This document shows, in pieces, positions 3,701-63,035 of a stretch of 64,000 bases of DNA. The notes beneath the pieces are model-generated. The model made no database searches, was not told where the DNA came from, and saw only the letters and a list, made by a program, of their open reading frames with translations. This DNA is from Eledone cirrhosa (taxonomy: Eukaryota), in NCBI GenBank assembly GCA_964016885.1, contig OZ024740.1, forward strand, positions 390,724,001-390,788,000, written 5' to 3'. Position numbers and translations under genes: made by a program. Positions within the stretch are counted from its first letter, which is position 1, and the number at the start of each line of letters is the position of its first letter.

Positions 3701-3702
<2 letters not shown>
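3595..3702 (+). mobile_element. Diverged SINE 5' half
   Basis: ggcgggtgattgg...ttctgaattcaaatc...ttgactttacctttcat resembles family S; runs directly into (ATT)n. Confidence 0.6.
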
Positions 3703-3753
<51 letters not shown>

Positions 3754-4579: not shown

Positions 4580-4583
4580 GAGT

Positions 4584-4620
<37 letters not shown>

Positions 4621-4632
4621 GTTATTGTTATT

Positions 4633-5862
4633 CCTTGAATCTCAGTCATTGATGTTGGTTAACTGGAAAGTCCGTTGGATTGAATATCAAGCCACTACCT
4701 GCAGCCTCAGATATTCAGGACGTATCGGAGGGTTCTTGCCGTTCCAAGCAAGCATGCCTTTTGAAGCGTTCCAAAAAGCGTGAAGGGGCCGATTTTCTTT
4801 AACCATCCCTGGAAACCTTTGGAGATAGTCCCCAGTGCGCCTATGACAATCGGGATCACTTTGACTTCATGGCAGTTCCAAATCCTTTTCACCTCCCACT
4901 TTAGGTCCTGGTATCGGTTAATTTTCTCCCTCTCCTTCTCTTGCACTCTCGTGTCGAACGGGCAGGCCACATCCACAATCAGGCACAATCTTTTTTCTTT
5001 GTCCACAACCACCAGGTCAGGTCTATTGTGTTCCAGTTTTTTGTCCGTCTGTATCCTAAAATCCCACAGCACCTTCACCTGACTGTTCTCCATCACCGCC
5101 TCTGGCCTATGCTCATACCATTTCTCAGAATGTGGTAGATTGTTTACTTTGCACAGGTGCCAGTGGATCACCCTTCCCATCACATCGTGTCTCCAGCCCT
5201 TATAGTGGGTCTGGGCTAGGTGTTTACACTCGGACACAATGTGAGCCACAGTCTCCTCTCTCTCTCCACAGATCCTGCACAGTGGGCTAGCCTCCTCCTT
5301 GTAGATATGGTGCTTCAACCACTTCGTTTTGAGGGCCTGCTCCTGCGCAGCCATTAGCATTCCTTCTGTAGCCTTTTTGAGGTCTCCTCTTCTCAACCAG
5401 TTCCATGTCTGTGGATCTCTAAATTCAGTTTTCTCAAAGAAGGTACTATGAAGGGATTTTCCCTTAAGGCTGCTCTTCCTCCTTGATGTTATTTCCTCCT
5501 TGGGTATCCCCTGGCCTACTGTCCCCTCCTTCAGTACAGCTCTGAGCATTGGCTCCTTACTATAGGTCACGTATTTGTATAGGTTGTTGTTTTTCTCCAT
5601 CTGAACACAGTCCTCTATGCTGATAAGACCTCTTCCACCCTCAGATCTCCTTAGGTAGAGTCTATCGACATCACTCCTCTTGTGGAACATGTTGTAGATA
5701 GTCAATAGCTTCCTAGTCTTCCTATCCAATTCTTTTTGTTCAGCAACATTCCATCTCAGAATTCCCGCACTGTACCTAATAATAGACACAGCTCGGGAAT
5801 TTACTGCGCTTATGGCATTTCTGCTGTTCAGATGTGACTTCAATACGCTCCTTACTCTCCGA
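4633..5862 (-). mobile_element. R4/Dong-like family A, 5'-truncated copy 2
   Basis: ORF 4707-5843 (378 aa) covers RT thumb, CCHC knuckle and REL; near-identical to 15020-16246; (TAA)n on both sides. Confidence 0.92.
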
Positions 5863-5933
<71 letters not shown>

Positions 5934-5934
<1 letters not shown>

Positions 5935-8918: not shown

Positions 8919-9157
8919 TTATTATTATTATTATTATTATTATTGAATGCCATGGTTGACGGAGGCTCGGCTCTGTAAGGTATAGTAATTTTTAACCGTT
9001 AAAACAATTGTAAATTGTTTAAAACTTGAACCAAATTGTTGATAAAGACACCCTCCTCCTCGTGAGAGGGGTCTTTCTGTCCGTTATTTGGCCCTTCGGG
9101 GTTAAATAGCCAGTTATTGGGGTTTTGTACCCAAAATTTCATTTTAAACAAAAAAAC

Positions 9158-11251: not shown

Positions 11252-11286
11252 GTGGTCTTTCCCATCTTTTCCACTCTATTTTAAAC

Positions 11287-14200: not shown

Positions 14201-14706
14201 TCCAGAAATCTCTGGCCTGGCAGTGCTACCGAGGAGCCTTGCCAGTTCGGGATAAACTCTACAGGCATGGAGGTGCCGTCAGCCGGGCATGTCCGAGATG
14301 CGCGCAGGGCGACGAAACCGTCCTGCACGCACTCGTCCAGTGTCCGAAAATTGCTGACTTGTGGGTTTATGTCGAACACCTGCTGTCGCGTTTAGGACGG
14401 ATCCAGCTATCATCTGAGTCTATCGTGAGGATTGCCCCGCCCTCCTCCTTTAGCCGGGAAGGGCAGGCAGTTTTTATCTGTCTGGTGGCCATGGCGAAAG
14501 AGATAGTATGGTGGACACGTTTGAAAGGGCTGAAGACGAGCACTTACCTCTTCGGTGATGCTCTGATTGACTTTTTCAAATTTCATTTGAAAAGGAAAAT
14601 CAGAGTAGAGAGGGAAGTGCTCTCTTCCCAGCATTTTGTTGAAAGATGGGTGAGAGAAGCAAGAATGGCCCGAGTGAATGGGCCGACTCTGAGTATATAT
14701 CTGTAA
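11287..14706 (+). CDS. Tx1-like ORF2: AP endonuclease + reverse transcriptase + C-terminal Cys finger
   Basis: 1139 aa uninterrupted: SINARGL, SET, GDWN, YLDR, TDH (APE); PGYWKLN; FRPITLLN, DQSKAFDRV, VRQGCPLS, YADD (RT); CPRC...ETVLHALVQC. Confidence 0.95.
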   Translation: MTSLRIGSINARGLGSSWKQGHLLNDLRSLNIDVVAISETRISEARAFAPIFGGYDVYASPSRPGSGGGVAVLFRRGLDLAIRAIFLDPEGKLVVLDVTSGDGQAFRLVAVYAPTGAGRPDFFRRLETFLGTSRSLVLVGDWNGILDARWDCVGLADRGGGCKSLTNLLRRFELSDRYRLDFPNVPMWTWTNRIGSSRSYLDRVFCREIDRSSIGCPQFKIVSYTDHKFVICVLDLDRLHRRGPGYWKLNASLPARKAYRDRISELVKRALTGAIVNNKWWFALKRAIRIESIRFSKALAIEKNRAEGELVRKLDEALSKGIATDVLAAKLALDQFFNAKHEGCVVRARVRALRHEGTKAVQWARVAEARRGNKATIRSLVDHDGRMLLDPGQMCEAFQRHFAQLFGGSGGPGRGMDFSVYLDGLPRLSATEARCCEKPITAAEVREAMTGCTRGKSPGLDGLPYELYVQMPDLFGGLLADVYCNWQQNGRIPSSVSRGAVALLRKDPNKGDNIDNFRPITLLNTEFKILAKVLAKRLALVVGGLVGEAQTCAIPDRSIHDNLHLMRYIVERVAREPGTGGSLINLDQSKAFDRVDHRYLAAVLRAAGFGPVFRGWIAAMHSDICSVVRVNGHLSEPFNIMRSVRQGCPLSSLLYVLTLEPLLHKLETLRGVPRELGCGRSVSAYADDVTVVVSNAKHIEAIGTTLREYEAVTGAMINQEKSVGLQLGTWRGRSMPSNSVVGRWTDGPVKLLGVWFGPDLQTDKNWDEVTSRVASLTQKWAERKLSLKGRAEVANAYIASVICYRLTVVPCPKPRLTALERLLFRFLWKGRAPMVRRSICCQHPLRGGLGMPWLMMRRHALRLRHLHLFLDGDQVWSPFARRVFPQLVSLTELQSWVKRRPRGSAWRLECLQALTALDQSGNVIGGNSTSAFYRGLVEGKSDDVLGETLGVDENQLANLFGRTFGPGPMDNFQKSLAWQCYRGALPVRDKLYRHGGAVSRACPRCAQGDETVLHALVQCPKIADLWVYVEHLLSRLGRIQLSSESIVRIAPPSSFSREGQAVFICLVAMAKEIVWWTRLKGLKTSTYLFGDALIDFFKFHLKRKIRVEREVLSSQHFVERWVREARMARVNGPTLSIYL

Positions 14707-14966
14707 ACTAAAGGTGGAAAACTGGGAGAGGGCACTTGCCTTGGTGGTCAGGGTCATTGTGGCTTTTTACTGGGCTTTCTCCACAAATGTCCCTCCGAAG
14801 TCTCCCCCCTATTGGGGAATTTTTCATTGTTATTTTCATTGTTATTTTTGTTACATCCTCTGTTTTTGTTTTTTTACACGCAGAAATGCCCATTTGTACC
14901 GTCCTGCATTGTCCTGCACTGTCCTTAATGTCTACTTTATGTAAACCCTTGTGGTTAATAAAGAAA

Positions 14967-15007
<41 letters not shown>

Positions 15008-15019
15008 GTTGTTGTTATT

Positions 15020-18000
15020 CCTTGAATCTCAGTCATTGATGTTGGTTAACTGGAAAGTCCGTTGGAATGAATATCAAGCCACTACCTGCAGCCTCAGATA
15101 TTCAGGACGTATCGGAGGGTTCTTGCTGTTCCAAGCAAGCATGCCTTTTGAAGCGTTCCAAAAAGCGTGAAGGGGCCGATTTTCTTTAACCATCCCTGGA
15201 AACTTTTGGAGATAGTCCCCAGTGCGCCTATGACAATCGGGATCACTTTGACTTCATGGCAGTTCCAAATCCTTTTCACCTCCCACGTTAGGTCCTGGTA
15301 TCGGTTAATTTTCTCCCTCTCCTTCTCTTGCACTCTCGTGTCGAAAGGGCAGGCCACATCCACAATCAGACACGATCTTTTTTCTTTGTCCACAACCACC
15401 AGGTCAGGTCTATTGTGTTCCAGTTTTTTGTCCGTCTGTATCCTAAAATCCCACAGCACCTTCACCTGATTGTTCTCCATCACCGCCTCTGGCCTATGCT
15501 CATACCATTTCTCAGAATGTGGTAAATTGTTTACTTTGCGCAGGTGCCAGTGGATCACCCTGCCCATCACATCGTGTCTCCAGCCCTTATAGTGGGTCTG
15601 GGCTAGGTGTTTACACTCGGACACAATGTGAGCCACAGTCTCCTCTCTCTCTCCACAGATCCTGCACAGTGGGCTAGCCTCCTCCTTGTAAATATGGTGC
15701 TTCAACCACTTCGTTTTGAGGGGCTGCTCCTGCGCAGCCATTAGCATTCCTTCTGTAGCCTTTTTGAGGTCTCCTCTTCTCAACCAGTTCCATGTCTGTG
15801 GATCTCTAAATTCAGTTTTCTCAAAGAAGGTACTATGAAGGGATTTTCCCTTAAGGCTGCTCTTCCTCCTTGATGTTATTTCCTCCTTGGACATCCCCTG
15901 GCCCACTGTCCCCTCCTTCAGTACAGTTCTGAGCATTGGCTCCTTACTATAGGTCACGTATTTGTATAGGTTGTTTTTCTCCATCTGAACACAGTCCTCT
16001 ATGCTGATAAGACCTCTTCCACCCTCAGATCTCCTTAGGTAGAGTCTATCGACATCACTCCTCTTGTGGAACATGTTGTAGATAGTCAATAGCTTCCTGG
16101 TCTTCCTATCCATTTCTTTTTGTTCAGCAACATTCCATCTCAGAATTCCCGCACTGTACCTAATAATAGACACAGCTCGGGAATTTACTGCGCTTATGGC
16201 ATTTCTGCTGTTCAGATGTGACTTCAATACGCTCCTTACTCTCCGAATGTATTCAGTTCTTAACAATTCCTTCATTTTTTTGTTCTTTATGCCATCAGCC
16301 TCCAGAACGCCCAAATACTTGTATTCCTCCTCAGAGTCAATTTCCTTTATCATCTCACCTGTTGGTATCTGGATCCCGTTACTTGTGCTCAACCTACCCC
16401 TCCTCATCACAATGACTCCACATTTACTAATACCAAACTGCATACATATATCACTGCTGAAAATACGGACAGTGTCAACAAGCACATCCAACTCCTTCTC
16501 ACTTTTCCCGAAGAGCTTAAGATCGTCCATGAAGAGGAGGTGATTGATGGTAAGCTCTCCCTTTCCCAACTTGTATCCTGCTCTCACTTTTCGCAGCATA
16601 ATGGTCAAGGGCATCAGGGCAAGGACAAACAACAGAGGGGACAGGCTATCTCCCTGGAAGATACCTCTCTTGATCTTCACGCTTCCCAAGGATACTCCAG
16701 TTGATGTCAACTCTGTCTCCCAGGACCCCATACTCCTGCCCAGCAACTGTCTGATGTTATCTGCCACCCTGAAGATCTCCAGGCTTTTGGTGATCCAAGA
16801 ATGAGGCACCATGTCAAATGCCTTTCTGTAGTCTATCCATCCCATGGCAAGATCAGTGTGTGTCCTCCTGCAATTCCCCATTACCATCTTATCAATAAGT
16901 AACTGGTCCTGTGTACCACGTGACTTCTTTCGGCATCCTTTCTGTTCGTCCGGTAACAAGTTGTTTGTGTGGAGGTGATGGTAGATTTCCTCAGACACAA
17001 TGCTCGTCAACAGTTTCCACATTACGGACAGACATGTGATAGGTCTATAGTTGGTAACATCATTACCCTTGATTCGGTCTTTCATTATCAGAACTGTGGT
17101 ACCTTTTGTCAACCACTCTGGCACCTCACCCGACACCAAGCAGTCATTGAACATGGCCGTCAGCTTCGGGTGGAGGGATGTTAAATTTTTAATCCAATAC
17201 CCCTGCACACCATCTGGGCCTGGTGATTTCCAGTTGGTTAGTTTTTTGGCCTGCCCCTTAAGAGTTTCAACTGTGATACTCAAATCAGTTTGTTGGTGTG
17301 CCTGCTCACCGATCTCCCTCTGTACTGTCTCAATCCACCCTGCCTGGACATTATGTCTAACATCCTGCTCCCATATTCCTCTCCAGAATGTTTTAGTTTG
17401 CTCCGCCCCAGGGATCAAGTCGTTGCCTCTTTCTTTCCCCTCAAGCTGTCCAAACAGCATCTTCTGGTTGTTGTCGAACATGCGGTTCTGTTTATACTGA
17501 CTGACTCTGTTCTCGTATCGCACTCTTTGCTACAATGCGTTGCTGTTCTCGTATTGCACTCTTTGCTACAATGCGTTGCTTTAGTTCCTCTATGATAATA
17601 TTTAGCTTTTTCCTCCTAGTTTTGTACTTTATTTCCAGTCTATTTTTAGTGCCTATGTTTTTTAGTGTCCCATTCAGTAGTGACTCAAGCTTTCCTATGT
17701 CATTTCTCATTTCCCCGATTTGACCACTCAGTCGTTTCTTCCACCACGGCTCTGCTCTTTCTTGTCTGTTGTTTCCTCTCGCTTTTATACCAAGTAGTTT
17801 CCTCACCGTATTTGCTGTTGCTTTGAGGATATTGTTGCACTGGTGAAGGCTCCTCGCCTCAAGGTATGGGATGACTTTGTTTACCTTAGCTGTTGTTTCT
17901 TTTAACTTTTTCCTGTCTACAAATCTTAGGTTCATAGGTCTCCCACTATCATTGTTCAATTCATCTACCACTAAATTTAGGATGTCAACCGAATCTTGTC

Positions 18001-18898
18001 CTAGCCCGTCAGCATTCATCTCCTCAGTGGCCGTATCTCTGTTCCAGGTATTATTTATCTCAGTATTCAGATCATTGTCTTCTTCGGGTGGTTCCTCCGT
18101 TCTCAGGACCTCTTCACCTTCATTTCCCACTGGCTCGCTTGTCTGGCATACTACACCCGCCATCTCCAAGCCATTCTCTCTGCTCAGTTCCTCCAGTTCC
18201 AGCTCGCTTATCCACCCATTAGTTCTTATTACCCGAGCCTGCCCGGCCAATTTTTGTTCATCTAATTTAAATAGACCAATCTCGTTCCAGATGTTATGCA
18301 TCCGTCTCCTCTAGCCCCTCTCCTTGGGGTTACTTTTCAGGTAACATTGCATAACAGTTCTATTCAATTCTTTAGTCCAGTTGGTTCTGGCCCCTTTCCT
18401 TCTTCTTCTTCCTCCAACATCAGCAGTATTTGGTTGACAGTCAGGTTCCTGCTGCTGAGCCAGGGGGCACCTGTTGGGTGAGAGTCTGTCACATGACGTT
18501 CTAGTCTCCATTTCACCGTTATTCGAACTGTTTATGTTCGATATTTAAACACTCTTATCGAGGATTGGCGAATGTATGGTTACATAGCCATCTGTGGATT
18601 CGCCGTTCCACTTGGCCCTTGTGTGGCATTATCACCACGCTGTATACGAACACACATAAACAAACAAACACACAGGCAGAAAGGGCCCCAAAAATGAATA
18701 AGCATAAGTTTCATTGTAATGTAGTGTTCGAATGTCTGACTTAGTTTTTGTTTTTTTAGTTTTAGTTTTTCCCCCCTCTTCTCTGTCCGTCCGCCTGCTT
18801 CTCTCTTCATTCTTATTTTCTTTACGTTTTTTGTTTTTGTTTTTTGTTTTTTTTTTGTTTTTTTCTTTTTTTCTTTTTCTCTGTTTGTTTTTCTCGTT
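15020..18898 (-). mobile_element. Apparently full-length R4/Dong-like family A element, inactivated
   Basis: One ORF broken into 18311-18511 (in-frame TAG), 17492-18301 and 15094-17523 (frameshift at a 36-bp duplication); FMDD RT, CCHC, REL; (TAA)n at both ends. 5' limit approximate. Confidence 0.88.
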
Positions 18899-22650: not shown

Positions 22651-22685
<35 letters not shown>

Positions 22686-22813
22686 AATAGGATTTCGCTT
22701 CAAGCATAGCTTTATACAATATGTATAGAAATTTCGTATTTCGAAAGAAATACGGTTTTAGGAAGGGGGGGTGCTAACGCCCTCTGGTGTTGTCCAGCAG
22801 AAGCAAGGGGGAC

Positions 22814-22858
22814 AACCATCTATGCATTTCAGGCTTGGCTGGCCATCGTCAGGACGAT
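22814..22858 (-). ncRNA. Minimal type I hammerhead ribozyme
   Basis: Minus strand: atcgtc-CTGACGA-tggc..gcct-GAAA-tgca-TA-gatggt. Confidence 0.75.
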
Positions 22859-23075
22859 CCCTCCCACTGCTCTGCGACTGCTGGACTTGAAAACAGCCGA
22901 GATATATAGTTTTCTCGTCTGTGTAAATGAGGTGATTAATCTCATTTGCATATGAAGCTGCATAAGTTGGCTCAACTTATAATAGAAAAGAAATAAGATT
23001 TCGCTTCAAGCATAGCTTTATACAATATGTATAGAAATTTCGTATTTCGAAAGAAATACGATTCCAGTGGGATGG

Positions 23076-23119
23076 ATCGTCCTGACGATGGCCAGTCAAG
23101 CCTGAAATGCATAGACGGT
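23076..23119 (+). ncRNA. Minimal type I hammerhead ribozyme
   Basis: atcgtc-CTGACGA-tggc cagtcaa gcct-GAAA-tgca (palindromic stem III)-TA-gacggt. Confidence 0.8.
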
Positions 23120-23374
23120 TGTCTCCCTTGCTTCTGTTGGACAACACCAGAGGGCGTTAGCCCCCCCCCCCCCCCCCCCTCCCCCGCCAGTCTTCGCATA
23201 GCTACGGATTCCTAAAATCGTATTTCTTTCAAAATACGAAATTTCTATACATATTGTATAAAGCTATGCTTGAATGCTTGAAGCGAAATCCTATTTCTTT
23301 TTATTATAAGTTGAGCCAACTTATGCAGCTTCATATGCAAATGAGATTAATCACCTCATTTACACAGACGAGAA

Positions 23375-23455
<81 letters not shown>

Positions 23456-26076: not shown

Positions 26077-26610
26077 GACGTAAAATAAGAACTCTATGCG
26101 TCAAAGCATGGCTTCCGACTCTCTACCGATACTGCCAATCCATCGCCAATTCTATTCAATAATGAAGGAGTAACGTTAAGTTTCTTTTCCTACTATATCA
26201 AGCGTTAAGCTAATATATCTTCATTGTACTGTATTATTTGCTTTGTTGTAGGAAAAGAATCTTAACGTTACTCCTTCATTATTAAATTGAATTATATATA
26301 TATATATATATGTTGGTAGATGTACTAATTCTCTATATTTATCTCCAAATTATTTGTTGAGCAAAACTTGCCAAAATTTACTGCTGATTCATGGTAGTAG
26401 TAGGCTCTTGTCATAATACCACCCCGCTCCTAACTGATTAACCTCAGTGTCACGTGATTGATTCTTTAGAATCTGCCACTGACCAGAGGTAGTGAATTTT
26501 TTCAGTGCTCTGGAATTTAGTCCTCGCTAGCTTTATTCCATCCACTGAATTATTATTTTTATATGGGTTCCTAGTGTCCGCGCATCGCCTGGGAACTTAG
26601 CTGAGAATAG

Positions 26611-26692
26611 ATTCCCTGATGACGTAAGGAATTCTCTATGGTTATATTACGTAACTATATTTATACCCTTACAGAAACTAATTAGTTGGAGT
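26611..26692 (+). ncRNA. Type I hammerhead ribozyme within a 534-nt terminally redundant unit
   Basis: attcc-CTGATGA-c gtaagg...ccttac a-GAAA-ctaattag-TT-ggagt. Confidence 0.7.
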
Positions 26693-26864
26693 GAAAATTT
26701 TAGTAAGTAAGTTGATTTTTAATTTTAAAATTTTCTTATTTTACGTCTTTCATATAATTGTTCTGCATCCCCCTGCATAGAACCACAAAGGTACTAAGAC
26801 ATAACATATATATTTGCTAGCATGGGTGTACATCTGTACACATATGTTGGTAGATGTACTAATT

Positions 26865-27510: not shown

Positions 27511-27987
27511 TTTGCACGGTACAACTGCGTTCCTGTTATTGCACCACCAGTCTAATCGGTTCGTTATAACTTACTCCATTCTATTTTTTCCTCGGTTACT
27601 TACTTGCATGTTCCATTGTCCCATGTCCCCCCCCCCCCCACCATTCGGTCTGTTTACCTGTTTGTCTCTCTCTTCCTCTCTCCTCACTACTTTTCCTTAT
27701 TTTCTTCTTTTTTCCTTTTCAGACTACATTTATTGTATTCAGCCATGTAGAGCGAAAATTTTCTTTTTTATTTGAATTTGACAAAGCCGGCCATTTATCA
27801 CTCGTATACAGGAAACTAACTGGCCAGTCTGTTGATATGCAAATCTAGCTAATCAGTGGCTCTGCTAATATGCAGATCTGACTGATCATCCAGTCTGCTA
27901 ATATGCAAATCAGGCCAATCAGTCACTGTGTATTTTTGAAAATAGCATATATTTTCACTAGCTCTGACAGTTTGGCAGGTGAACAGT

Positions 27988-28037
27988 GAGCTGTACTGAT
28001 GAAGGGTAATACCCAGAAACATTAGTGTCTGCAGTTC
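27988..28037 (+). ncRNA. Type I hammerhead ribozyme
   Basis: 8-bp stem I gagctgta/tgcagttc, CTGATGA, gggt-aat-accc, GAAA, cattagtg, TC cleavage site. Confidence 0.85.
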
Positions 28038-28206
28038 TGTTCACATGCCAAAACAAGAGCAAGAATGAAGTGTTCATTCTACTGACATGGCTATAAAATG
28101 GAGGCTTGTTTTCATAATTGCAAACGAATCGAATGTTATTATTAATATTCGAAAAACTCAGATTACAATTATTGTATTCAACCATGTATACGAAAATTTT
28201 CTTTTT

Positions 28207-28328
<122 letters not shown>

Positions 28329-28367: not shown

Positions 28368-28413
28368 TGCTAACATTGTTTCATCCGCACTATAAGTGGG
28401 ACTCATCAAAGCA
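28368..28413 (-). ncRNA. Type I hammerhead ribozyme (U at position 3)
   Basis: tgct-TTGATGA-gtcc cacttatagtg c ggat-GAAA-caatg-TT-agca. Confidence 0.7.
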
Positions 28414-28954
28414 TAAAGGTTAATTACATACCACACAAGCAATAACAAATCAAGACATTGAAGAATGAAAAATAATAGAAGATAAAGGATATTAAGGAAG
28501 TAAAAGTAAAAATAAAAATAAAAATAAAAATAAAAATAAAAATAAAAATAATAAAATAAACAATGAAAAATAAGGGGTGCTATCAGTCACAGTTGGGCGG
28601 GGTGCTGTCAACATATAGTTACATACAAGCATACACATGGATAAGAGAACAGACAAGAGTAGATAAGATAGATAGGATTAGGTAAGAGTAGGTAAAAAAT
28701 AGGTGAAAAACAGACTTATAATATATATAAGAAAATACAAAAAATATAACAAACATACATATAAAATATAAAATATACAGATAATAGTGATACAGGGTAA
28801 GGAATGAAATAAAATAATATAAAATTAAAATTAAAATTATATAAAATAGAACATAATATAATATAATCATAAAATAAGATAAAATAAGGTAAACTAAAAT
28901 AAAATAAAATAGACTAAAGTAAAATAATATAATATAAGATATAATTAAATGTAA

Positions 28955-28986
<32 letters not shown>

Positions 28987-29167
28987 AATTAAATAAATAA
29001 ATAAAATTAAAATTAAAATTAAAATTAAATAAATAAATAAATAAATAAATAAGTAAATAAATAAATAAATGAATGAATGAAATTAAATAAATAAATAAAT
29101 AAAATTAAATAAAATGAAATGAAATAAAATAAAATAAAATAAAGTAAATTGAGATAAGATATATATT

Positions 29168-29327
29168 TTTTTAGAATATATCTCTTGAATATATCAGGGG
29201 CCCACGAAGGCACTAAGTGTCACAGTTATCCGTATCACTTGACCATGTTTTTAGAATATATTTCTTGAAAATATCAGGGGCCCACGAAGGCACTAAGTGT
29301 CACAGTCACCAGTATCACTTGACCATT
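29168..29327. repeat. ~80-bp tandem duplication
   Basis: Two copies of ttttagaatatat...aggggcccacgaaggcactaagtgtcacag...cacttgaccat. Confidence 0.9.
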
Positions 29328-31528
29328 GCAAGGCAATGGAGGCGTCCCAGGTTGGGCAGTCTCAAAAGTTCACTCGAAAGTCACGGGTGTGCATTCACAC
29401 AGCTGAGCGGTGGGGTAATCACAAACCGGTTCACACCCGGGCAGGAGTCCAATGGTCAAACAGAGGTACATCGAAGGAAGGTAGGAGAATTCACGTGCAG
29501 TAGCAAGAGGCCGAAAGCAAGGTGCAGGCGGGTTAGCCAAAGCAAGCAGACACAGTTGGAGCGCATACAAAAGATATATAAAAAGACAAAAGATATATAA
29601 AAAATAGCTTCAAGAGCCATGAAGTCACCGCATTGGGACATCACAAGATTATACACACCAATATGTTCAGCACGTATATGCACATATACACACCACATGC
29701 ATATGCAGAGACGGTATACATATATATATTTTTTTTTATATACAGACATATACAACCACCTACACCCATACACATATAAATGTATACACAGACACACACG
29801 CACACACACACAGCGTAGGACACCCGGGTCAAAGCTGATATTAAACACAGAAATACCACATTAGGCAAGACCCACCACCACGGATAATACATTCAAAATA
29901 AAAACATACGATGAGATGTAGTAAAATAAAATTGAATTCCTACGGAGATAATCATGTCCGCACGTGCCATTGCCCGATTTAAGTGTACACAGACCGTTAG
30001 TAACTACGGAGGGCTATCGGGGCCAAAACGTTACTTTCGGGATCATAACAACGACCGTCAATATATGGAAGGCCGATCGTGCTAGAAAGACTACAACCCC
30101 GGGCAAGAGCTCCCAGAAGTCAGCCTGTAGATCTTAAACCACAGAATAGGAGGGCAACACGTACATGCGCCACGTATCTACTGCTTACGGCGAGATGGCA
30201 CAGGTCCGCCCACAGTTACAGGCTAAATTTCTACTAGTGCAGCCTATATCACAGTACACGCTCTACATAGATACATTACATCACAACTCATGCGCATACA
30301 GAGGTACAGATCCACAAGATACACGTCAGGATAGACCCACCAATGCACCAATGGTGGGTAGGCGAGCGTGGATGGGTTACATCCGCTGTGCCAAACAGGG
30401 GTGCTTATTAACATACACACCCACTCACCTGTACACCCCAATATCCAGATCAATATCCTCCCGCAGGCATACGTATACACTCACCGACTCATATACATAG
30501 AAGACAAACAATAGGAGACAGTTACACACAATCAGAGACAGTTACACAAGATAGCCCAACTGGAGAAATAAGGAAGTGCTAGCTAATAGGTTTAAAGTAG
30601 AAGAAAGAGCTTAATATTCGGTGGGGGCAAGAGGAAAATATTTCTGACTTTCTATTTAGTAGAGGGCATTTAGCAAATATAATAGAGTGGGATTCGGCAA
30701 GGCATAGGTTACATACTCTATTATGAGGAGTATATGGATGGGATTTAGCAACCTGCCGCCAAGTAAGTGTGTAATGTGTTCGTGCATTTTTTAAATTGTG
30801 GACGTACGCTGCCAAGGAGGTGGAGTTCCTCAGTTTATTATGTCTAAAAGTGCACTGGTGAGAGTTAAACCTGGTCTTAAAGGGGGTGGAGGTTGACCCT
30901 ATATAGGTTTTAGTGGACGCCGTAGTTACCACATCACATGCATAAACTATGTTTCTAACAAGGCAGAAACCATTCAGGGGGCAGCCTGAAGCCCTTCTAC
31001 AGTTACAACTTCTGGTGATGCTATTCTCAGAATGATCACCACTTGTGTTTCGGCCCACTCTGTCCACTACCGTGTTTTCCCCTAGGCTTAGGTTGTCCAG
31101 GCCTTCCTTTATTTTCTTATTATTAGTAATGGCCAGATGAGAGGCCAGATTTTGGGTTGTAGAATACGAAAGTTTAACAACATTCTTATTGAGGATAGAG
31201 TGGTACCTATTACCAGGAGGGAAGTTCCTTTCTAACACAGAGAATGAACTACATAGGAACTACAAAAAAACAACGCAGAGTAATTTAGATAATATTAATC
31301 TGGAGGTGTATAACATAGTGGTAAAACTAGGTCTGGATAAACACACTCAGCCTTATTACCCCAAGCAGCCTAGATTCACCCTCAAGGACCATGAATGAAC
31401 ACAAATAAATAATACAATATATCATCTCTCATCCCCGAGAGATGATATATTGTATTCCTTTTCCCATTTTCACATCTGTGATATTTACTACATATACATA
31501 GACACGCGCGCACACACTCTCACACACT

Positions 31529-38102: not shown

Positions 38103-40046
38103 TCATCATCATCATCATCATCAACGTTTAACGTCCGTGTTCCACGCTCGCATGGGTTTGGACGGGGGTAGTCCCACTTGAGGCAAGAGTGATTGTCTTG
38201 CTCGCATAGGACTGTCTGGCAGGTTTTCTACAGTTGGATGCCTTTCCTAACACCAACCACATTTACAGTGTGGGTCTGGGAGGTTTTTACCGTGTTGCCT
38301 ACACGGCCACATTACAGCGTGGACTGTGTGTTTTTTTGTCGTGACACCTACACGATCTCATTTGTTTCGGCCTACACGATCTCATTTGTTTCGGCCTGGA
38401 TGGCGCGGCACCAACATAACTTTACATAGAACGGGGTGGTGTGGATGGGGTGGGGGTGGGGGTGGTGGGACGGGGTGTATTTTGTTAGAGATGCCTACTG
38501 GCTGGAGTAGGTTTTACTATATATATTTAGGTAAGGCGGGTCTTCTCTGTTACTGAGTACCGCCAAAGGTCTCGGTCCAGTGACATTGTCTTGGAGAGGT
38601 GTAAGTGTGTGATGTCGGAGTTTATCAGCTCGTCCCAGGTTTTTCTAGGTCTGCCTATTCCGTGACTACCGTCTATCTTTATTGCCCTGCACTTTGTTAT
38701 ACAGCTATCGACTTTCATGCGCATCACGTGTCCATACCAACGTAGTCTTCTCTCGAGTAAACAACATCTGATCCCTCTTATCTCTAATTTTTTCCTTAGT
38801 TCGTTTATGCTTTGCCGTTCACGTATATTACTGTTACACATCCAGCGGAGCATGCAAGCTTCGTTCCTCTCTAGTCTGCGTATATCCTCTGCACACAATG
38901 CCCAGGTCTCACTGCCATGCAACATTGCTGTTCGTATGCAGGCATCGTACAACCTGCCTTTCATTTTTAGGGAGAACCCTTTAGCAGCTAATAGTGGTAT
39001 AAGCTCTCTGAACTTTTTCCAACCAGTTCTGACTCTAGCTACAGTACTTTCAGAGCACCCTCCCCCACTGCTGATTTTATCGCCCAGGTAACGGAAGCTG
39101 TCCACTATTTCTATAGAACCCTCTGCGCAATTGAAAGAGCTAGTATTTTGTGGGCACTTGCTGCTACTTATTGCACCAGAACACCGGCCACATGTAAAAT
39201 CTATGTTCTTAGTTAGCTTACCTGTGATCCCACTACATCTTTTATGCACCCATACTTTGCATTTAGGACATAAAATGGAGTTTCTACCTACGCCTTTCCT
39301 ACACACCGAGCACGACCATTTCCCAGAAGGGACCGCCGCCTTGTTTTCTTTCCTACAAACTAGAACTTTGGTCTTAGCCAGGTTAATTTTAAGTCCTTTT
39401 GACTCTAGGCCGTGCTTCCATGTTTGGAATTTCTTCTCTAGCTCGGCCATTGATTCCGCTATGAGTGTCAGGTCGTCTGCGTATAGGAGTTCCCATGGGC
39501 AGCCTGTCTTGAACTCCTCTGTTATAGCCTGAAGGGCAATAATAAATAGTAGAGGGCTGAGAACAGAGCCCTGGTGGACGCCAACTTTTACGCTAAACTC
39601 TTCACTATATTCGTTGTTAATTCTAACCTTGCTGACTGTTTCTTTATACATGGCTTGTATAGCCCTCACAAGCCATTCGTCAACGCCTAGTTTTCTAAGA
39701 GCCCACCAGATAATGGAGCGGGGGACTCTGTCGAAGGCTTTCTCCAAGTCGACAAAAGCTAAGTAGAGGGGTTTACCTTTAGCTAGGTACTTCTCCTGTA
39801 GTTGTCGTACAATGAAAAGAGCGTCTGTGGTACTTTTGCCTGACACAAACCCGAACTGCATTTCATCTAGGTCAATTCTCTCTCTGATTAGTTGCGCTAT
39901 TACTTTTTCCGTGACCTTCATGACCTGGTCGATTAATTTAATGCCTCTATAGTTACTCCTATCTAGGGCGTCTCCTTTACCCTTATAACAGTTAACGATG
40001 ATGCTGCTATGCCAGTCCTTCGGAACAACCCCATTCTGTACGACTT
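38103..40046 (-). mobile_element. RTE-clade LINE, 5'-truncated, with PHD-like finger in the RT
   Basis: ORF 38527-39921: QFGF, DLEKAFDRVP, VHQGSVLSP, YADD, C4HC3 Cys array, LHGSETW, RLRWYGHV, DRDLW; (GAT)n tail at 38103-38122. Confidence 0.9.
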
Positions 40047-40359
40047 GGATATATATATATATAAATATTTACCCCATAACACTACGTTCTGCTTCAGTGT
40101 GTATATTTTTCCCGTTATTCTATTTTATTTCTTATCTTTATTTTATTATATTTCAGCCTCGCTTTCAATTGTAATAGCCTTTGTTTTTAAATCCATATCT
40201 TACGTCCATATTACGTCTGTTGAGCTCGTCTGTCTTCGTGAAGTGAAACTTTTGGTAAATGGAATAATTGTCTTATGTTGTTTATTACGTAATTAAATAG
40301 CTCTGTAGCATACATAGAGCACTCTCCTTTCCTTTACCCTTCCTACGGAAATACTTCAT

Positions 40360-46745: not shown

Positions 46746-48960
46746 TTTTGGAAAAGAATGAAACGAAATTTCATTTCTCACTCTTAGTACGGCTGATACT
46801 TAAATGTAAGTATGTATGTATACGTACATACATATATGTATACAGAAGTACAGTAGTATGTATATATATACATACATGCACACATATATATATATGTACG
46901 TATGGGTTTACCGAACATTTATTATAATGTTCGGTGTGTTTGTTTGTAAACAAACAAACAGCCCGAATTACGCCGTACAGTGTTCAGGCAACCATCGTCG
47001 CCCTTTTGTTCAACACTGACACAGGAACGATGTACTAGTTTCAAGCTTATTAGCTATCGTCAGCATCGTATATTGTGGCGAAATGTGAATTACTACCTCA
47101 TTCTAGAAGAACTTGGTAAAAATCATTATTTGAGATTGTATCGGGCATTTCTAATAAATATCTATGAACTTACAGCTGCAATTCATCATGATCAGCTTAA
47201 GCTCAGTTTTGTTATAGTTAACTAATAATAACAAAAAGTTATATAAATCTGGATTTCTGCATTTAATTATCGCATCACGAGAATATTTTATAATAGTAAA
47301 TATACAAGGAAGTGTAGTGTCAGTAGAAAAGTAATGAATAGCTAAAGAAAAGACTGATAATAATATATAATATTGCTAATAATATAGGTAATAATTTATA
47401 ACATAGTCATAATACCAGAAATTTAATGGGAGGGCACAGTAGATTATTAGATTATATCACTGCCGTCACTAGATATTTTATTGATTAAATGCCGGGAAAA
47501 ATACCACAGAAGGTTTCCCACAGCCAATCCACTGATCTTACATCTAAAATTAATAATAAATATTAAGTGTGTGTTATTAATAAGGTGGCATAGTTATTTT
47601 TAATGGTTAATAATACTGCCCCGATTCAGTCGTTATAATTCCTATACAATCTCGATTCAAAGCAATTGCCAATCAAGTATATCAATGGAATATTGATTTA
47701 GTGTTTAATCGGAAGCCAGGACAAAATCTACAATATCCACAAACCAAAGCTAATTTTATGAGACCTACACTTAAATGCAAATTTATTTTTAAAATCATAA
47801 ATATAATAACAACACGCATGTGAAAACAAATGTGAATCCTGTGTTCAATATAAAATGATTCTATATTCAGGTTTCTAGTCTACATCTAGAAATTTTCGAA
47901 ATATTAAGTAAATTATTTTCTGATTAAACAAAAATGCCTATGCCATCCTAATAATTTGTAGATTGATGATACAAAAATATCATTTTAACACGAGACTATA
48001 TGATCAATGTGTTGAGAAAAAAATTAATTGTGAAAATTATTTGTATTCATTTTTTATGTTTATTCAAGTAATTTCCGAAAAGCGATATTGTATTCGCATA
48101 GAGAATCGATTTTGCTACACTTGTTGTTCAGTACAATCTAATGTTAATCTTCAAATCAGTGTAGGGATAATGATAAATACGACGGCGGATATTCTATTCA
48201 ACTGAATTTATTTTTACACTGTTTACACAGATTCCAAATCAACTCTATTATTTGAGATTTTAACTGCACCACTATTATTGCAGTCTATCATTGATATTAC
48301 TACTAATATTATCTGCAACGAGCTTTGAAAAGTCAGTATAGTTCAACAGAAAGTCAAGCTATCGACACCGATCGATAATCCGTACGCATAATGCTATTCT
48401 TCGCTAAGTTAAAATTTTCTTGTGGTATTTCCGTTAGTATTTTCTCTGTATTTAATTCCACGCGTATTCTATGTTTAAACACTGAAAGATATCAAATATA
48501 TGCAAGCGCAACAATTGTATCCTTTAAAATAATCTCTAATGGGAGATGAGTAAAGGGGCTACCAAAATTATACGATGCCAAATTACTCAATTTATAGTAT
48601 TTAGATGAATTCCACTTAATTTTGAGTGACAATCTCACAGATATAAGACTCTATCGTTTCTTTCATCAAAATCACTATACACCCAGGATAAAAACTAGGC
48701 CTTCTTCAGAAAAAAGAATACAATTTGATAGTTGAACTGGCATATGATTAAATATAAATTCTGCTTTTAATTTTGTACTAAGTATTAAAATTAAAATTGG
48801 TGTATCAAATACTTATCACCATTAGCGAGTAATTTGTCTTTGGCTAATAAAGCGTTTAGAAGCTTAAAAAAAATAGTAATTTAATTCCTTCTTAAAATGA
48901 ATATTTCTCTCACTTAATGTTGAATTATAAATGTGAGTCTCGCATAATGTTCTGCTGTTT

Positions 48961-51301: not shown

Positions 51302-51396
51302 GTTACTAAAATCCTGTGCTTGCTTTCTTGCTTGTTTGTCTGTAATGTAATACGGCCAAAAGGTATATATATACACATACACACAGGTATATATAT

Positions 51397-52130
51397 ATTA
51401 TTTTTCCCACATCTTACGTTAACTATTTTTCCCATTTTGACGCTATAGTCACTTATATACTATGGAATGCTGTTCGCTTTTCGCTGCAGTGTTTTCTATA
51501 CCTTTCATTTATATATTTATACTCGGATTTTTCCTCGAGTGCTTAAATTATTTGTGACTAATCCCGGTTTTTTTTATAAAAAACTGCGATAATATTGCAT
51601 TTTGCTGAACTCCTTACTGTAGAGTTTTTTTCGGAATGTTTTTGACTGTTGTTTCTTGTAAACAAACTTTCGTCTCATTCTGACGTCAATAGCCATTTTT
51701 TCCTCGTGTGCGTTTTTCGTGATCACGCATGATGTTGGACTGGCCAGCTTTAGAATTCCCTTTTTGGTATATTAATCTGCGAGAATCCTGGTTATCGAGT
51801 TGAGCTCTGCTGATGATGAACTCCAACCGTGACAATCTCCGCTGAAAGTTTTCATGAAATAGTCTTACGACTATACAGAGCATTTGAAGTTTTTCCAAAT
51901 TGAAGGATAGGTATCTTGAACTTTATTTTATCATGAGTTAAGGCTCTATTGATTTTTCCCTGGATTTCACTAAATTCTGTGGATGAATTTATATCCTGAT
52001 TCTCTTTAGGATGAGTTTAAATTATTTTTCCAACATCTTACGTTAACTATTTTTCCCATTTTGACGCTATAGTCACTTATATACTATGGAATGCTGTTCG
52101 CTTTTCGCTGCAGTGTTTTCTATACCTTTC

Positions 52131-52140
<10 letters not shown>
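51397..52140 (+). mobile_element. Retrozyme-like element: 624-nt unit with 120-bp terminal direct repeat
   Basis: 51397-51516 equals 52021-52140 (one mismatch seen); contains one hammerhead; TA-rich flanks. Confidence 0.8.
51804..51881 (+). ncRNA. Canonical type I hammerhead ribozyme with full stem III
   Basis: gctctg-CTGATGA-tgaact...agttttca t-GAAA-tagtc ttac gacta-TA-cagagc. Confidence 0.88.
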
Positions 52141-52182
<42 letters not shown>

Positions 52183-52935: not shown

Positions 52936-53007
<72 letters not shown>

Positions 53008-53036
53008 AAATGTGTGTAATCCTTGGTACAGTTAGG

Positions 53037-53800
53037 TATATTAAGACAGGGGGGAAGAAAAAATGGCTTCACTTGTGCTTTCAACAAATTTATTTTCTTC
53101 ACAAAATCCAAAAAGAATTTTTCTTAAAAAAATTATTTTATAAATTAAGTTGTTGGTTGTTGGTTAGGTCTTAGGAGTTCTTGGTTAACGTAGGAGGTAT
53201 TGTTTCGTTTTTAGAAAGACCTTTCACGCTGAGGTGCGCTTGTCAAACTGATGTGTATGTGGTGTGTTGTTCTATATATAGGGATTTAACATGTCTGTGA
53301 TGTGGTGGGGGTTTCTTTTCTCCCCCTTTAATAAGTGCATGGGTGTAGGTGTGTTGAAAAAGTGTTCATAGCAGTAATGAGTTGAGACAGTGAGTAGGGT
53401 TAGGTGGGGAGAAATGTAGCAAGTGCGGCCTGCCCCGGTCATTCTCGAAAAATTCCTTTATTCAGGGGAAAAAGCTTTTAGCATTGCTTTTGTGTTGAGA
53501 ATGGTCACAGGCAAATCGCACCTGTCAAGTTTGTGAATAATTATTTTTTTCTTCTTTTTTTCCTGAAGAATTTTTCTACGTCCATCCCAAAGTTAGTCCT
53601 TTGTTCAACACACACATATGTGCGCATATACGTACATACACACACGGGCATATGTAGGAATATATAGGCACACACCATCAATCACACACCCATGCACAAA
53701 TACATCCACATACATACACAAAAACATATAGAGACACCTATAAAAACACACATATACATACGTACACACACGAATATGTACTCATACCTCCACATGGGTA
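53037..53800. repeat. Left arm of ~765-bp inverted repeat (right arm 57437-58200)
   Basis: Near-identical reverse complement; ORF-track peptides 53692+ and 57123- match. Confidence 0.92.
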
Positions 53801-53819
53801 CATATATATACATACACAA

Positions 53820-55495
53820 CATAAAAGGGAAAAATACATCATACATCGAAGCACCAAAACCGACAGACTTAAAATTACGCCCCATTATTGCTGGCCCAGC
53901 CTCAAGCACACAACGTCTAAGCAACCTATTAGACATCATACTCAAGCCCCCTATGTAAAAAAGTTCCAAGCTACATCAGAGATGATATGGAATTCCTTAA
54001 CTATATCCCCCAAAAAGTACACCAGGATACAATCCTAGTCAGTTTTGATGTAATAAGCCTGTACACTAACATCCCACACGACCTAGGGATTGAAGCTGTG
54101 GCCTTTTGTATTACAAAACACTCAAGTCACATTTCAGAAAGATTCCCCAAAGAATTCATCTTGGAAGGACTTAAATTAGTATTGGAAAACAACCACTTCC
54201 TCTTTGACAACGAACTTTATCTACAAATAAAAGGAACAGCCATGGGTACCAAAGTGGCCCCTACATATGCAACGCTCGTTATGGGTCACTTAGAGGCAAA
54301 ATTATATTCCCAACTACAGATAACATTCAGTCACGACTTCGCCTTCTACATTAATAAAAACTGGAAACGTTACCTAGATGACTGCTTCATCTTCTGGAAC
54401 AGAAGCCAAACAGACCTACAAAAATGTTATTCGATCCTAAACAGGCTTCATGAAGCCATACAATTCACTATGGAATGTAACGAAAAGGAACTACCCTTTC
54501 TAGATATCCTCTTCATTAAAGAAGTGGAAAATATCATAACGGACCTATTTTGCAAACCCACTGACACACACCAATACTTAAATTTCCAGTCAGCACACCC
54601 CTCACATACGAAAAGGAACATTCCCTTCAACATGGCAAGGCGCATCTGCACTATAGCAACACACCCCGTACTACAAGAAAAAAGATTATGTGACCTGAAA
54701 AAATTCCTTAAAAAACAAGAACACCCGATGAAACTCATCAACGCAGCCATCTCCAAGGCTAAGAACATCCCAATAACAACACTGAGAAAACCAAACCCAC
54801 AACATAAAAAAGAAAACCCTGCTATCTCTTTTGTCATCACTCACAACCCAGGGAACATCAACATTGTGAAAACTGCTAAGCAGTATCTCCCGATTCTACA
54901 GCAATCTACCAAAATGAATGCACTTTTTAAAAAACACACAGATAATTTATAGCAGACGCCAAGCACCCAACCTTAAAAAACTAATTACCAAGGCAAAATT
55001 TACGACCAGCATGGAATCAATGCAAGTGACGAAATGCAAGGACCCTAGATGTGGAACCTGTGAACTCATCGAAGAGGGCAAACAGTTGTCCTTCAAAAAC
55101 CATGATAATTTCAAGGTCAATGCTAACATGAACTGCAAAACGAAAAACCTAATATATTGCGCAACATATCCACAGTGTATAGAGTATTACATTGGGGAAA
55201 CCGGAACGGGATTACATGATAGAGTCCGGGTACATAAACAACAGATTAAAGACCCCACAGTCAGAAATACCACTTTGCATCATGCGGGAAGGGAAAATTC
55301 ACAATCTTCCCTTTCTTCAAAATATGGTCGGATAACGAACATTTCCGCAGATATTAGGAAGAATTCTTCATTGAAAAATTTAAACCACTACTGAACACGA
55401 AAAAATGAATTAACACTCGGAGGTAAAATTCCATTTCACTACCCCCCCCCCCTCTTCTTATGTATACACATGAATATCTGAGTGAACGGTGAAAC
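53820..55495 (+). mobile_element. Penelope-like element RT + Cys linker + GIY-YIG, 5'-truncated and frameshifted
   Basis: LRPIIAG, SFDVISLYTNIP, GTAMGTKVAPTYA, RYLDD, LPFLDI; CKDPRCGTC, NLIY...YYIGET. Confidence 0.92.
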
Positions 55496-55630
55496 ACACA
55501 CATATATGTGTGTGTGTAGGGATGTATGGATGTATGTACGTGTGGGTATATATGTATGTGGGTGTGTGTATATGTGTGTGTGTGTGTGTGTATGTGTATA
55601 TATATATGTATGGATGTGTGTATGTTTGTA

Positions 55631-55699
<69 letters not shown>

Positions 55700-55756
55700 G
55701 TGTATGTGTGTATATATGTGTATATGTACATGTATGTATGTGTATGTTTGTATATA

Positions 55757-55803
<47 letters not shown>

Positions 55804-56120
55804 ATATATGGATAGATATGTATGTTTATGTGCGTGTGTATGTATGTGTATGTACCTATATATATGTGTGTGTGTGTATGTATGTGCATATATGTATATA
55901 TGTGTGTACATATGTGTATGTTTCTGTTTGTGTATATGTATGTATGTATGTAGATGTATGTGTATATATATGTGTATATATATGTATATGTATGTGTATG
56001 TGTATATGTGTCTTTATGTGCTCGTGTGTACGTACATATATATATATGTATATATGTATGTGTGTATGTATGTGTGTGTATGTGTGTATATATATGTATA
56101 TATATATGTATGTATATATG

Positions 56121-56152
<32 letters not shown>

Positions 56153-56204
56153 CCTGTATGTGTATGTATGTGTGTATGTATGTACTTGTATGTGTATGTG
56201 TATG

Positions 56205-56251
<47 letters not shown>

Positions 56252-56378
56252 ATATGTATGTGTATATATATATATATATATGGATATATATGTACGTGTA
56301 TGTGTATGTGTATATGTGTGTGTGTGTGTATGTGTCTGTATGTGTTTATGTGTACATATATGTATGTGTATGTGTATG

Positions 56379-56471
<93 letters not shown>

Positions 56472-56506
56472 GCCTCTCTCTTTATATGTGTATATATACG
56501 GACATA

Positions 56507-56537
<31 letters not shown>

Positions 56538-56670
56538 ATACACGTGTGAGTGTGTGTATGTGTGCGTGTATGTGTATATATGTATATTTAGTTATGTATC
56601 TTTATGTGTGTATATGTATGTATATGTATGTATGTATATGTATGTATATATGTACTTATATATATATATA
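55496..56670. repeat. Degenerate (TA)/(TG)/(TATG) microsatellite expanse
   Basis: Direct read. Confidence 0.95.
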
Positions 56671-57312
56671 TGTCTCATGGTCGGGTCGTTGGCGACTAAA
56701 CTGGCTACCCCACCAAGGTTTCTTGGTGAGGAGGGTGACTTTGGACATCCTGCAGGACTAAAAACAAAACCTGTCAAAGGGCAAAGGAGCTCTTAAGAGT
56801 CAATAGCCATCCAAAATCACCGGGAGAGATGACCCCTTAGCCTTTGTCAAGGCAGAATTCTAGGAGAAAGAAAACTCTGATATAACACCTGCAACCCTGA
56901 TGGTATCCAATGATGTTGACTTGTTCTTCTTTTTGGTAAATATCATCTTGGTTAAGAGAGTGGGACTGGCTTTGTGCAGTGCCTTTTGCTCACTATAAAA
57001 GCTTCACAGCACAGGCATTGCTTTATATCTGGAGATCTCTCTGCACTTGTCATCACATGGTACCATGGGCCCTGCACTATGTGTCAATAATGGTCACAAG
57101 TGTAGTCTTTGTACCAGAGTTTTCAAGTTGCTGGCTGGACTAAAAAGTCACATTCGTTCAGCGCATCGGTAGGGGTTCTCCTACATGGATATAAAGTAGT
57201 GGCCGTACTCGAAAACGAGTTGGCAGCCACCATATATATATATATATATATATGTGTGTTTGTATATATATGTATATATGCGTGTGTGTATATGTGTGTG
57301 TATGTGTATATG

Positions 57313-57393
<81 letters not shown>

Positions 57394-58200
57394 ATGTATA
57401 TGTGTATGTGTATGTGTATGTATATGTATATATATATACCCATGTGGAGGTATGAGTACATATTCGTGTGTGTACGTATGTATATGTGTGTTTTTATATG
57501 TGTCTCTATATGTTTTTGTGTATGTATGTGGATGTATTTGTGCATGGGTGTGTGATTGATGGTGTGTGCCTATATATTCCTACATATGCCCGTGTGTGTA
57601 TGTACGTATATGCGCACATATGTGTGTGTTGAACAAATGACTAACTTTGGGATGGACGTAGAAAAATTCTTCAGGAAAAAAAGAAGAAAAAAATAATTAT
57701 TCACAAACTTGACATGTGCGATTTGCCTGTGACCATTCTCAACACAAAAGCAATGCTAAAAGCTTTTTCCCCTGAATAAAGGAATTTTTCGAGAATGACC
57801 GGGGCAGGCCGCACTTGCTACATTTCTCCCCACCCAACCCTACTCACTGTCTCAACTCATTACTGCTATGAACACTTTTTCAACACACCTACACCCATGC
57901 ACTTATTAAAGAGGGAGAAAAGAAACCCCCACCACACCACAGACATGTTAAATCCCTATATATAGAACAACACACCACATACACATCAGTTTGACAAGCG
58001 CACCTCAGCGTGAAAGGTCTTTCTAAAAACGAAACAATACCTCCTACGTTAACCAAGAACTCCTAAGACCTAACCAACAACCAACAACTTAATTTATAAA
58101 ATAATTTTTTTAAGAAAAATTCTTTTTGGATTTTGTGAAGAAAATAAATTTGTTGAAAGCACAATTGAAGCCATTTTTTCTTTCCCCCTGTCTTAATATA

Positions 58201-58268
<68 letters not shown>

Positions 58269-58507
58269 ATATAGAGGGGAAAGACACAGAAGAGTGTGTT
58301 TTTCTTTACTGGAATTTCAAACCACCAGCGTGAAGAGAATATAAGCTAATAGAGGCATAGGAAAAACATTAAAATTAAAAGTATAAATTAAAATGAGAAA
58401 CCAACCTGATACCTAGATCACACATGTACAAACTCACCGGGAGATTGTTTCGCCATTTAAGTGGGTTCCAATTCGGCCCTGTTGGTCATCAGCATATGGA
58501 GAGACCG

Positions 58508-62087: not shown

Positions 62088-62341
62088 TTTTCTATTAAAT
62101 ATTTATATTCTGCTTTGTATTGAGTACCTTACTTACTGTGGTTACTCCCGATTGAACCCGGGATAAACATATACATATATATATATATATAAATTTTGAG
62201 TATATGTTGGTTGTCTACCAACACCTCAGTATGCAGATTGGAGCACTCGACGAAGTGCGCAGGTTGGTTTGGTTACTCTGGAGTAATGTAAAATAAACTA
62301 AAATAAATAAGTCAAATATTTAAAATTTGGTTTCGTTTATT

Positions 62342-62396
62342 ACTGCTATATATATTTCGGTGACAGCCATCTTTGGCTGTGACCTCTTCAGGCAGT
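62342..62396 (-). ncRNA. Type I hammerhead ribozyme (left arm of fold-back)
   Basis: actgc-CTGAAGA-ggtcacagcc..ggctgtcacc-GAAA-tatata-TA-gcagt. Confidence 0.82.
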
Positions 62397-62849
62397 CCGA
62401 ATTAGTGTGGTAGAGACGAGTACACATGTTGTTGAGGTGTTTAACTTTGTCAGTACTCTGATATGCCCAGTTCCTGGTTGGGTTGTTATTTCACTGAGGA
62501 ACTGGAATCATATGAATTTAAACAAACGTATTTTAGCGTCGAAGGACATCCTCTCCTCCCATTGGTCAGTTGTGAGAACATTCCTCAGTCAAAAGTCTAG
62601 AGAAATTCATTCTGAGGCGAGGCAATCTGTAGTGGTTGTTTTTGTTATTGTTAAGTTAAGTACATCAGACCTCTACCCTTATGTTGGTAGTAGTGTTGGT
62701 GTTGGAGTCAGCTTAATTCCAGCTGCTGCTGATTTTAGAAGGATCTGTGTGTGTGTGTGTGTTGGCATCTATCCTGCCACCATTTCTCGTGGTGGAGGTG
62801 GGATGGGGGCTCAACAACATGTGTACTCGTCTCTACCATACTAATTCGG

Positions 62850-62904
62850 ACTGCCTGAAGAGGTCACAGCCAAAGATGGCTGTCACCGAAATACATATAG
62901 CAGT
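62850..62904 (+). ncRNA. Type I hammerhead ribozyme (right arm of fold-back)
   Basis: actgc-CTGAAGA-ggtcacagcc aaagat ggctgtcacc-GAAA-tacata-TA-gcagt. Confidence 0.82.
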
Positions 62905-62950
62905 AATAAACGAAGCCAAATTTTAAATATTTGACTTATATATTTTAGTT

Positions 62951-63035
<85 letters not shown>

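Follow-up and report, generated by a model that had tools for sequence, protein, structure and literature searches.

A 5′-truncated copy of a non-coding, (TA)n-inserting hammerhead retrozyme family in Eledone cirrhosa

Non-LTR retrozymes of animals and their link to Penelope-like elements have already been published as a class (in the parts of PMC7229834, 10.64898/2026.07.22.740005, PMC7761336 and PMC4209133 that treat them). According to the relevant section of a review (PMC7761336), no motif points to a helper, and cDNAs longer than one unit are only predicted. The route by which animal retrozymes return to the genome is thus an open question, and it is addressed here with a family of 624-nt units. 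Like the animal non-LTR retrozymes as described in PMC7229834, PMC7761336 and 10.64898/2026.07.22.740005, this family is made up of head-to-tail repeats that are non-coding and low in GC, each unit with a single type I hammerhead; as in those descriptions, monomers, dimers and multimers occur and Penelope-like elements coexist with them in the genome. For the described elements, the passages cited propose that reverse transcription of a circle yields more than one unit. A literature search, conducted mostly by title, returned no paper in which a fixed start is mapped, concordance between turns is tested or a helix that blocks the ribozyme is shown to covary in animal retrozymes.

Insertion, family and target

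The window (the whole stretch of 64,000 nucleotides analysed) contains on its plus strand an insertion of 744 nt at 51397..52140, equal to 1.19 units, which is 5′-truncated and carries the fixed 3′ end of its family. A full 624-nt unit (51517..52140, numbered q1 to q624) is preceded by the 120-nt start of a second turn (51397..51516). The preliminary description reported near-perfect 120-bp direct repeats 624 bp apart with TA-rich flanks, and both were found: 51397-51516 and 52021-52140 differ at one position in 120 nt at a spacing of 624, the 5′ flank is TA-rich (51363..51396), and a 3′ remnant of the (TA)n target, (TA)23, occupies 52134..52180. Its estimate of 1.2 turns agrees with the length of the insertion and with indications in the genome, given below, that monomers were copied for more than one turn. 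No target-site duplication was discernible in the flanks. A 35-nt repeat 1,000 nt apart (51328/52328) was rejected as such a duplication, since its copies are only 91% alike, while the element differs from its kin by about 1%.

In the 3.0-Gb host genome 111 matches to the unit were obtained from 39 of 3,021 candidates scored. Other copies, which the preliminary description presupposed, do exist: exact searches revealed 3,350 3′-end motifs (control 0), 2,843 GAAA-stem III motifs (control 6) and 151 young-type cores (control 0). The 66 full units are 604-645 nt long and 72-100% alike, and their tree is ladder-like. No ORF was found in the unit, the longest sense frame having 49 codons, also when read as a circle, and the longest antisense frame 78; a coding circle (624 = 208 x 3) was ruled out by stops in all frames. 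The family thus appears to be large, old and without an ORF, with thousands of copies. In three sequencing runs of one sample the family was present as short contigs without an informative joint.

Copies range from monomers to multimers, head-to-tail, at many loci, and short arrays of 4-8 units also occur. At one locus (L061-L067, G000:C3:161512229-161543861) there is an array of 50.9 units, about 51, whose higher-order period is five units and whose ends, including the fixed end of dispersed copies, are those of a single insertion; judged by its sequence, this array is a satellite born from one retrozyme insertion. Alleles private to the array, some present in more than half of its units, occur in 0-2 dispersed passes, and the array was therefore ruled out as a master source. 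At another locus (L239) units of two different subfamilies adjoin, suggesting insertion beside an older copy.

Ends and flanks were compared in 89 insertions (93 found, with three inverted fragments and one local duplicate dropped; four edge rows excluded). An internal AU-rich site at q622-624, the 3′ end of the ribozyme strand, terminates 85 of the 89, and 5′ ends spread over q1 to q581, giving lengths of 0.1 to 2.7 units. The ends are thus half-permuted, with a fixed start and random truncation, as in target-primed reverse transcription; the free permutation expected in the preliminary description is ruled out. A TA run lies on the 3′ side in 82 insertions and on the 5′ side in 71, so the proposed homing to (TA)n held up. 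There is no fixed repeat: repeat length differs from copy to copy, which argues against an LTR design, as had been concluded from the position of the ribozyme outside the repeats. In the window the fixed 3′ end (52132..52140) reads UUUAUAUAU, is microhomologous to the TA target and is the putative start of reverse transcription, 265 nt 3′ of the predicted cleavage site. In a tandem or circular RNA it would be followed by a conserved block with a predicted hairpin containing CUCGG (51517..51546); q1-50, directly after the start site, is among the most conserved sequence. This arrangement fits internal initiation as described for anole Penelope in the cited part of PMC11167929. Many short copies, that at L177 among them, keep only 25-65 nt; 5′ ends of short copies cluster at q562, in a TATA stretch inside the unit, and in two copies the 5′ join carries reiterated slippage repeats.

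The hammerhead and a competing helix

The type I hammerhead of the window copy spans 51804..51881. Stem I pairs 51804-51809 with 51876-51881 (6 bp), the core consists of CUGAUGA (51810-51816) and GAAA (51856-51859), stem III has 6 bp and a 4-nt loop, and cleavage is predicted after 51875. A descriptor demanding at least 6 bp in each of stems I and III matched once in the 64-kb window and in none of 60 dinucleotide-matched random windows; the match is not due to chance. An Rfam scan returned only simple-repeat miRNA noise and no hammerhead family at E<=1. The ribozyme had been called complete, with a 6-bp stem I and a stem III hairpin. Both stems are as claimed; the base of stem II is one nucleotide short (CUGAUGA-UGAA/UUCA-U-GAAA), while in older subfamilies it is fully paired. 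The stem II base changes from paired ACG/CGU in old subfamilies through a U-U mismatch to the one-base-short form of young ones; a U-U base also occurs in an axolotl ribozyme that cleaves weakly (as reported in the pertinent part of PMC7229834).

Stems I and III are 99% paired over 33 aligned copies, and stem I shows two double changes. In a set of 43 distinct domains, q293:q360 is G-C in 31 and A-U in 9, and q290:q363 is U-A in 34 and A-U in 8; on these alignments the stems covary across subfamilies. Between lineages none of 11 core positions is variable, compared to 173 of 579 other positions, and the sequence of loop III varies freely. By descriptor, covariation and core conservation, each repeat unit carries a type I hammerhead. 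Further hammerhead-like motifs in TA-flanked repeats were seen in the window at 26090-26760, 27719-28210, 58427-58500, 62286-62960 and 47020-47070 (spacings 534 and 439, one inverted pair); the 534-nt spacing mentioned in the preliminary description is thus present.

A consensus fold of 13 natural cleavage-to-cleavage monomers revealed that 28 nt upstream of stem I pair with loop II. In the window the conserved 5′ arm of this helix, which competes with the ribozyme fold, is at 51777..51804, and the 3′ arm, identical with loop II, at 51821..51844. The 21 pairs are 92% paired over 49 copies with three doubly changed pairs. The helix score was reached by 0 of 500 shuffles, a test inflated by related sequences, and three doubly changed pairs were reached by 83 of 500. 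The outer pair, in a set of 48 distinct domains, is U-A in 29, C-G in 18 and mismatched in one, and one middle pair is G-C in 35, A-U in 9 and G-U in 4. The competing helix is predicted to be stabler than the ribozyme in 12 of 17 copies scored (five more were unparsed). We read it, from these predictions, as a putative off-switch of the ribozyme; alternatively, the inner portion of the helix may belong to the active fold, as a pseudoknot of loop II. In the window copy a rare C>A at 51834, seen in 2 of 91 passes, breaks one pair of the helix, and this copy is predicted to fold as the ribozyme because the change weakens the competitor. Given the short stem II base and the conserved competing helix, efficient cleavage as a monomer appears doubtful.

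Position 51821 (q305), at a G-U/G-C pair of the helix, is T/C hypervariable in all subfamilies, with C in 33 of 90 passes. The adjacent 51820 shows A>G in 9 of 90 passes, never in both turns. Editing or a misread modified base is a possible cause of this variability. The predicted cleavage site itself coincides with a breakpoint in 2 of about 13 private non-homopolymer deletions, a weak signal; at three loci (L127, L134, L218) small deletions or an insertion lie exactly there and may be ligation scars.

The window insertion holds one ribozyme, not two, and therefore cannot itself release a monomer or circle; it is likely a dead end and, lacking two complete ribozymes, is not 'active' by the definition given in 10.64898/2026.07.22.740005 (in the part cited). 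Two ribozymes are present in 13 of the 89 family insertions.

Candidate helper elements

Among the Penelope-type elements of this genome, two abundant families use (TA)n as their target. The first is marked by a Neptune-type linker, and a hammerhead was not found in it; its representative in the window (52947-58200) carries a 5′ copy in inverted orientation, a TA/TG-rich stretch of a kilobase on the 3′ side and two start sites separated by about 35 nt. Members of the second, a young family, are a median 97% alike and have frames of 844-873 codons and a hammerhead near the 3′ end. Its RWR, DKT and CxCX5C motifs match the Hydra clade as described in the relevant part of PMC8557442, an assignment made by motifs and not by tree. 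This very abundant family, with a long 3′ region, is represented at about 28400-31259 on the minus strand (L290-L334). The Hydra-type element has two start sites (used in 7 and 8 of 15 copies), each marked by UAUA with CGG within the next few bases; the distance between them, about 88 nt, exceeds the usual tail of 30-40 nt. The UAUA...CGG context, a motif defined post hoc, is common to these starts, the 624-nt unit and a 306-nt unit.

The preliminary description proposed Penelope RT as the helper. Against this, the unit showed no homology to the Neptune-type or the Hydra-type family beyond simple AT-rich words. The Hydra-type element is, on present comparisons, the best candidate helper. That the unit is non-autonomous, and not the terminal repeat of a Penelope element, is borne out in the loci examined: with one Neptune-type protein as query, no attached Penelope ORF was found in 39, 30 and 30 oldest-type loci, Penelope hits near the 39-locus and oldest-type sets being separate neighbours, and no ORF for RT plus GIY-YIG was found in the unit or attached to it. 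A search for a parent with the oldest subfamily as query found only more units.

The 306-nt unit is a real family, as had been suggested (window 22669-23384; L274-L289). It is non-coding and its hammerhead is minimal, with a palindromic helix III; partial tandems occur, and copies are often inverted. On contig C12, eight copies are spaced by about 60 kb inside a larger repeat. The window also contains several LINE-type RT ORFs (3700-18300 and 38527-40068), some of them in tandem and terminating in (ATT)n or (TTA)n.

The template and comparison with known systems

Among insertions found by the 3′ end alone (n=61), 32 reach 250 nt and two stop within 250-280. On a cleaved, linear monomer, copying would end at 265 nt; most longer copies run through. 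At eight lineage-diagnostic sites, discordance within insertions was 2 of 213, compared to about 93 expected for independent units. Turns are closer to each other than the family median in 48 of 48 multi-turn insertions, and closer than to any other copy in only 13 of 48. Thirty rare alleles are common to the turns in 42 pairs, some of them from later local duplication. Of 68 junctions, 39 are exact, 14 near-exact and 15 unmatched by the pattern, and the circular fold of the unit gave z = -2.6. Since turns share lineage alleles and run through the cleavage site, a monomer template seems to have been copied more than once, and this template was most likely a circle. Several observations count the other way. 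In the second turn, 11 of 39 products end 10-40 nt before the second cleavage site (one local duplicate counted twice), compared to 3 of 35 in the first turn, an excess that fits a linear 5′ end and argues against a pure circle. At position 51821 (q305) the turns disagree in 5 of 15 insertions, so copying of a single molecule was not faithful there, and at this and a few other sites the turns differ as if independently drawn. Two three-turn insertions show signs of later duplication at the DNA level, and young copies have spread with the shortened stem II base. In other animals, anole Penelope could insert in vitro without cleavage (PMC11167929, in the experiments cited), and 8 of 9 Xenopus dimers did not cleave (10.64898/2026.07.22.740005, in the part cited).

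The retrozyme family is real and well supported; the circle and the cleavage are what we infer. We consider it probable that 51397..52140 is a 5′-truncated copy of a non-coding, (TA)n-inserting non-LTR retrozyme copied by a Penelope-type RT round a monomeric RNA circle. Two-ribozyme copies would be transcribed and cut to a monomer of about 625 nt, which a host ligase would close; within the circle the competing helix would keep the ribozyme off. A Penelope-type protein, the Hydra-type one being the best candidate, would nick (TA)n, prime at the internal UUUAUAUAU and copy through the ligated site past one turn, and the 5′ end would be joined through TA microhomology.

The same copies, made with the same helper, might have come from uncut linear read-through transcripts of young tandem copies, with a largely dispensable ribozyme and units kept alike by DNA duplication. 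Short arrays of 4-8 units exist, local duplications are observed, the competing helix is predicted to outweigh the ribozyme in 12 of 17 copies, and for anole Penelope cleavage is not required for insertion in vitro, cleavage-dead mutants inserting normally (as cited above from PMC11167929). Progeny of such a template would never be longer than its source, yet in every subfamily across the 72-100% range there are multi-turn copies in which both turns carry the alleles of that subfamily, dispersed progeny of the one long array examined are absent, and the ribozyme core is conserved across lineages; we regard this origin as unlikely. We would put still less trust in a cleaved linear monomer with its ends held together by pairing, on which the enzyme jumps from the 5′ to the 3′ end and so mimics a circle. 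Stops enriched before the second cleavage site and not the first, two deletions at the cleavage site and predicted pairing between the monomer ends would all follow, but nearly all of 162 passes over the cleavage site are seamless, 28 of 39 products passed the second stop zone, and circles are the main form of coral, mussel and axolotl retrozymes (as described in PMC7229834).

Very improbable is a unit that is only the pseudo-LTR of an unsampled autonomous Penelope-like element. Type I hammerheads are carried by pseudo-LTRs, to which Xenopus retrozymes are related (10.64898/2026.07.22.740005, in the part cited), and the copies examined are a few per cent of the total; what lies upstream of the unit, however, is the unit again or (TA)n, and the searches with one Neptune-type protein in the 39, 30 and 30 oldest-type loci gave no attached Penelope ORF. 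Beyond the favoured reading of a Penelope-copied monomeric circle, we tentatively entertain a bolder one: a viroid-like RNA circle, maintained as one parasitic lineage through about 28% sequence change, its hammerhead silenced by a conserved helix, may hijack a Hydra-clade Penelope enzyme (UAUA...CGG start) that rolls round the circle. If so, the thousands of copies would be a fossil record of rolling-circle reverse transcription.

The family offers a mapped start and a target, a helper candidate whose young ORFs are intact, and signs of multiple turns at the level of single copies; these make the model testable in vitro. The competing helix is a possible answer to why circles do not cut themselves. 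Here this helix is supported by covariation, whereas most animal circles are predicted to leave the ribozyme unblocked, some mussel ones excepted (in the descriptions cited above). The unit of 624-640 nt exceeds the 170-400 nt described there for invertebrate circles and lies inside the 51-972 bp of the 2026 survey. Unlike the animal retrozymes in those descriptions, the family has a 6-bp helix III and a mapped (TA)n target with a single fixed internal start; no parent pseudo-LTR was found for it in the two Penelope-type families compared.

With Penelope-like elements of the Hydra and Neptune clades, as far as PMC8557442 and PMC11167929 describe them in the parts cited, the family shares 5′ truncation, partial tandems, an internal RT start, AT-rich or (TA)n targets and a hammerhead upstream of the start. 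It differs from them in having no ORF, one start instead of two (no 'tail') and few 5′ inversions; its start is microhomologous to the target, whereas that of anole Penelope is reported as not homologous (PMC11167929). Plant LTR retrozymes and hammerhead viroids, according to the account in PMC7229834, resemble it in a circular RNA of similar size (predicted here) and in complementary sequence that blocks the ribozyme. Their hammerheads are of type III, and they make use of LTRs and of Gypsy enzymes or RNA-to-RNA replication; nothing of this kind was seen here: the plant LTR retrozyme carries its type III hammerhead inside LTRs and makes a 4-bp target duplication, while in the present family a type I hammerhead lies outside the repeat.
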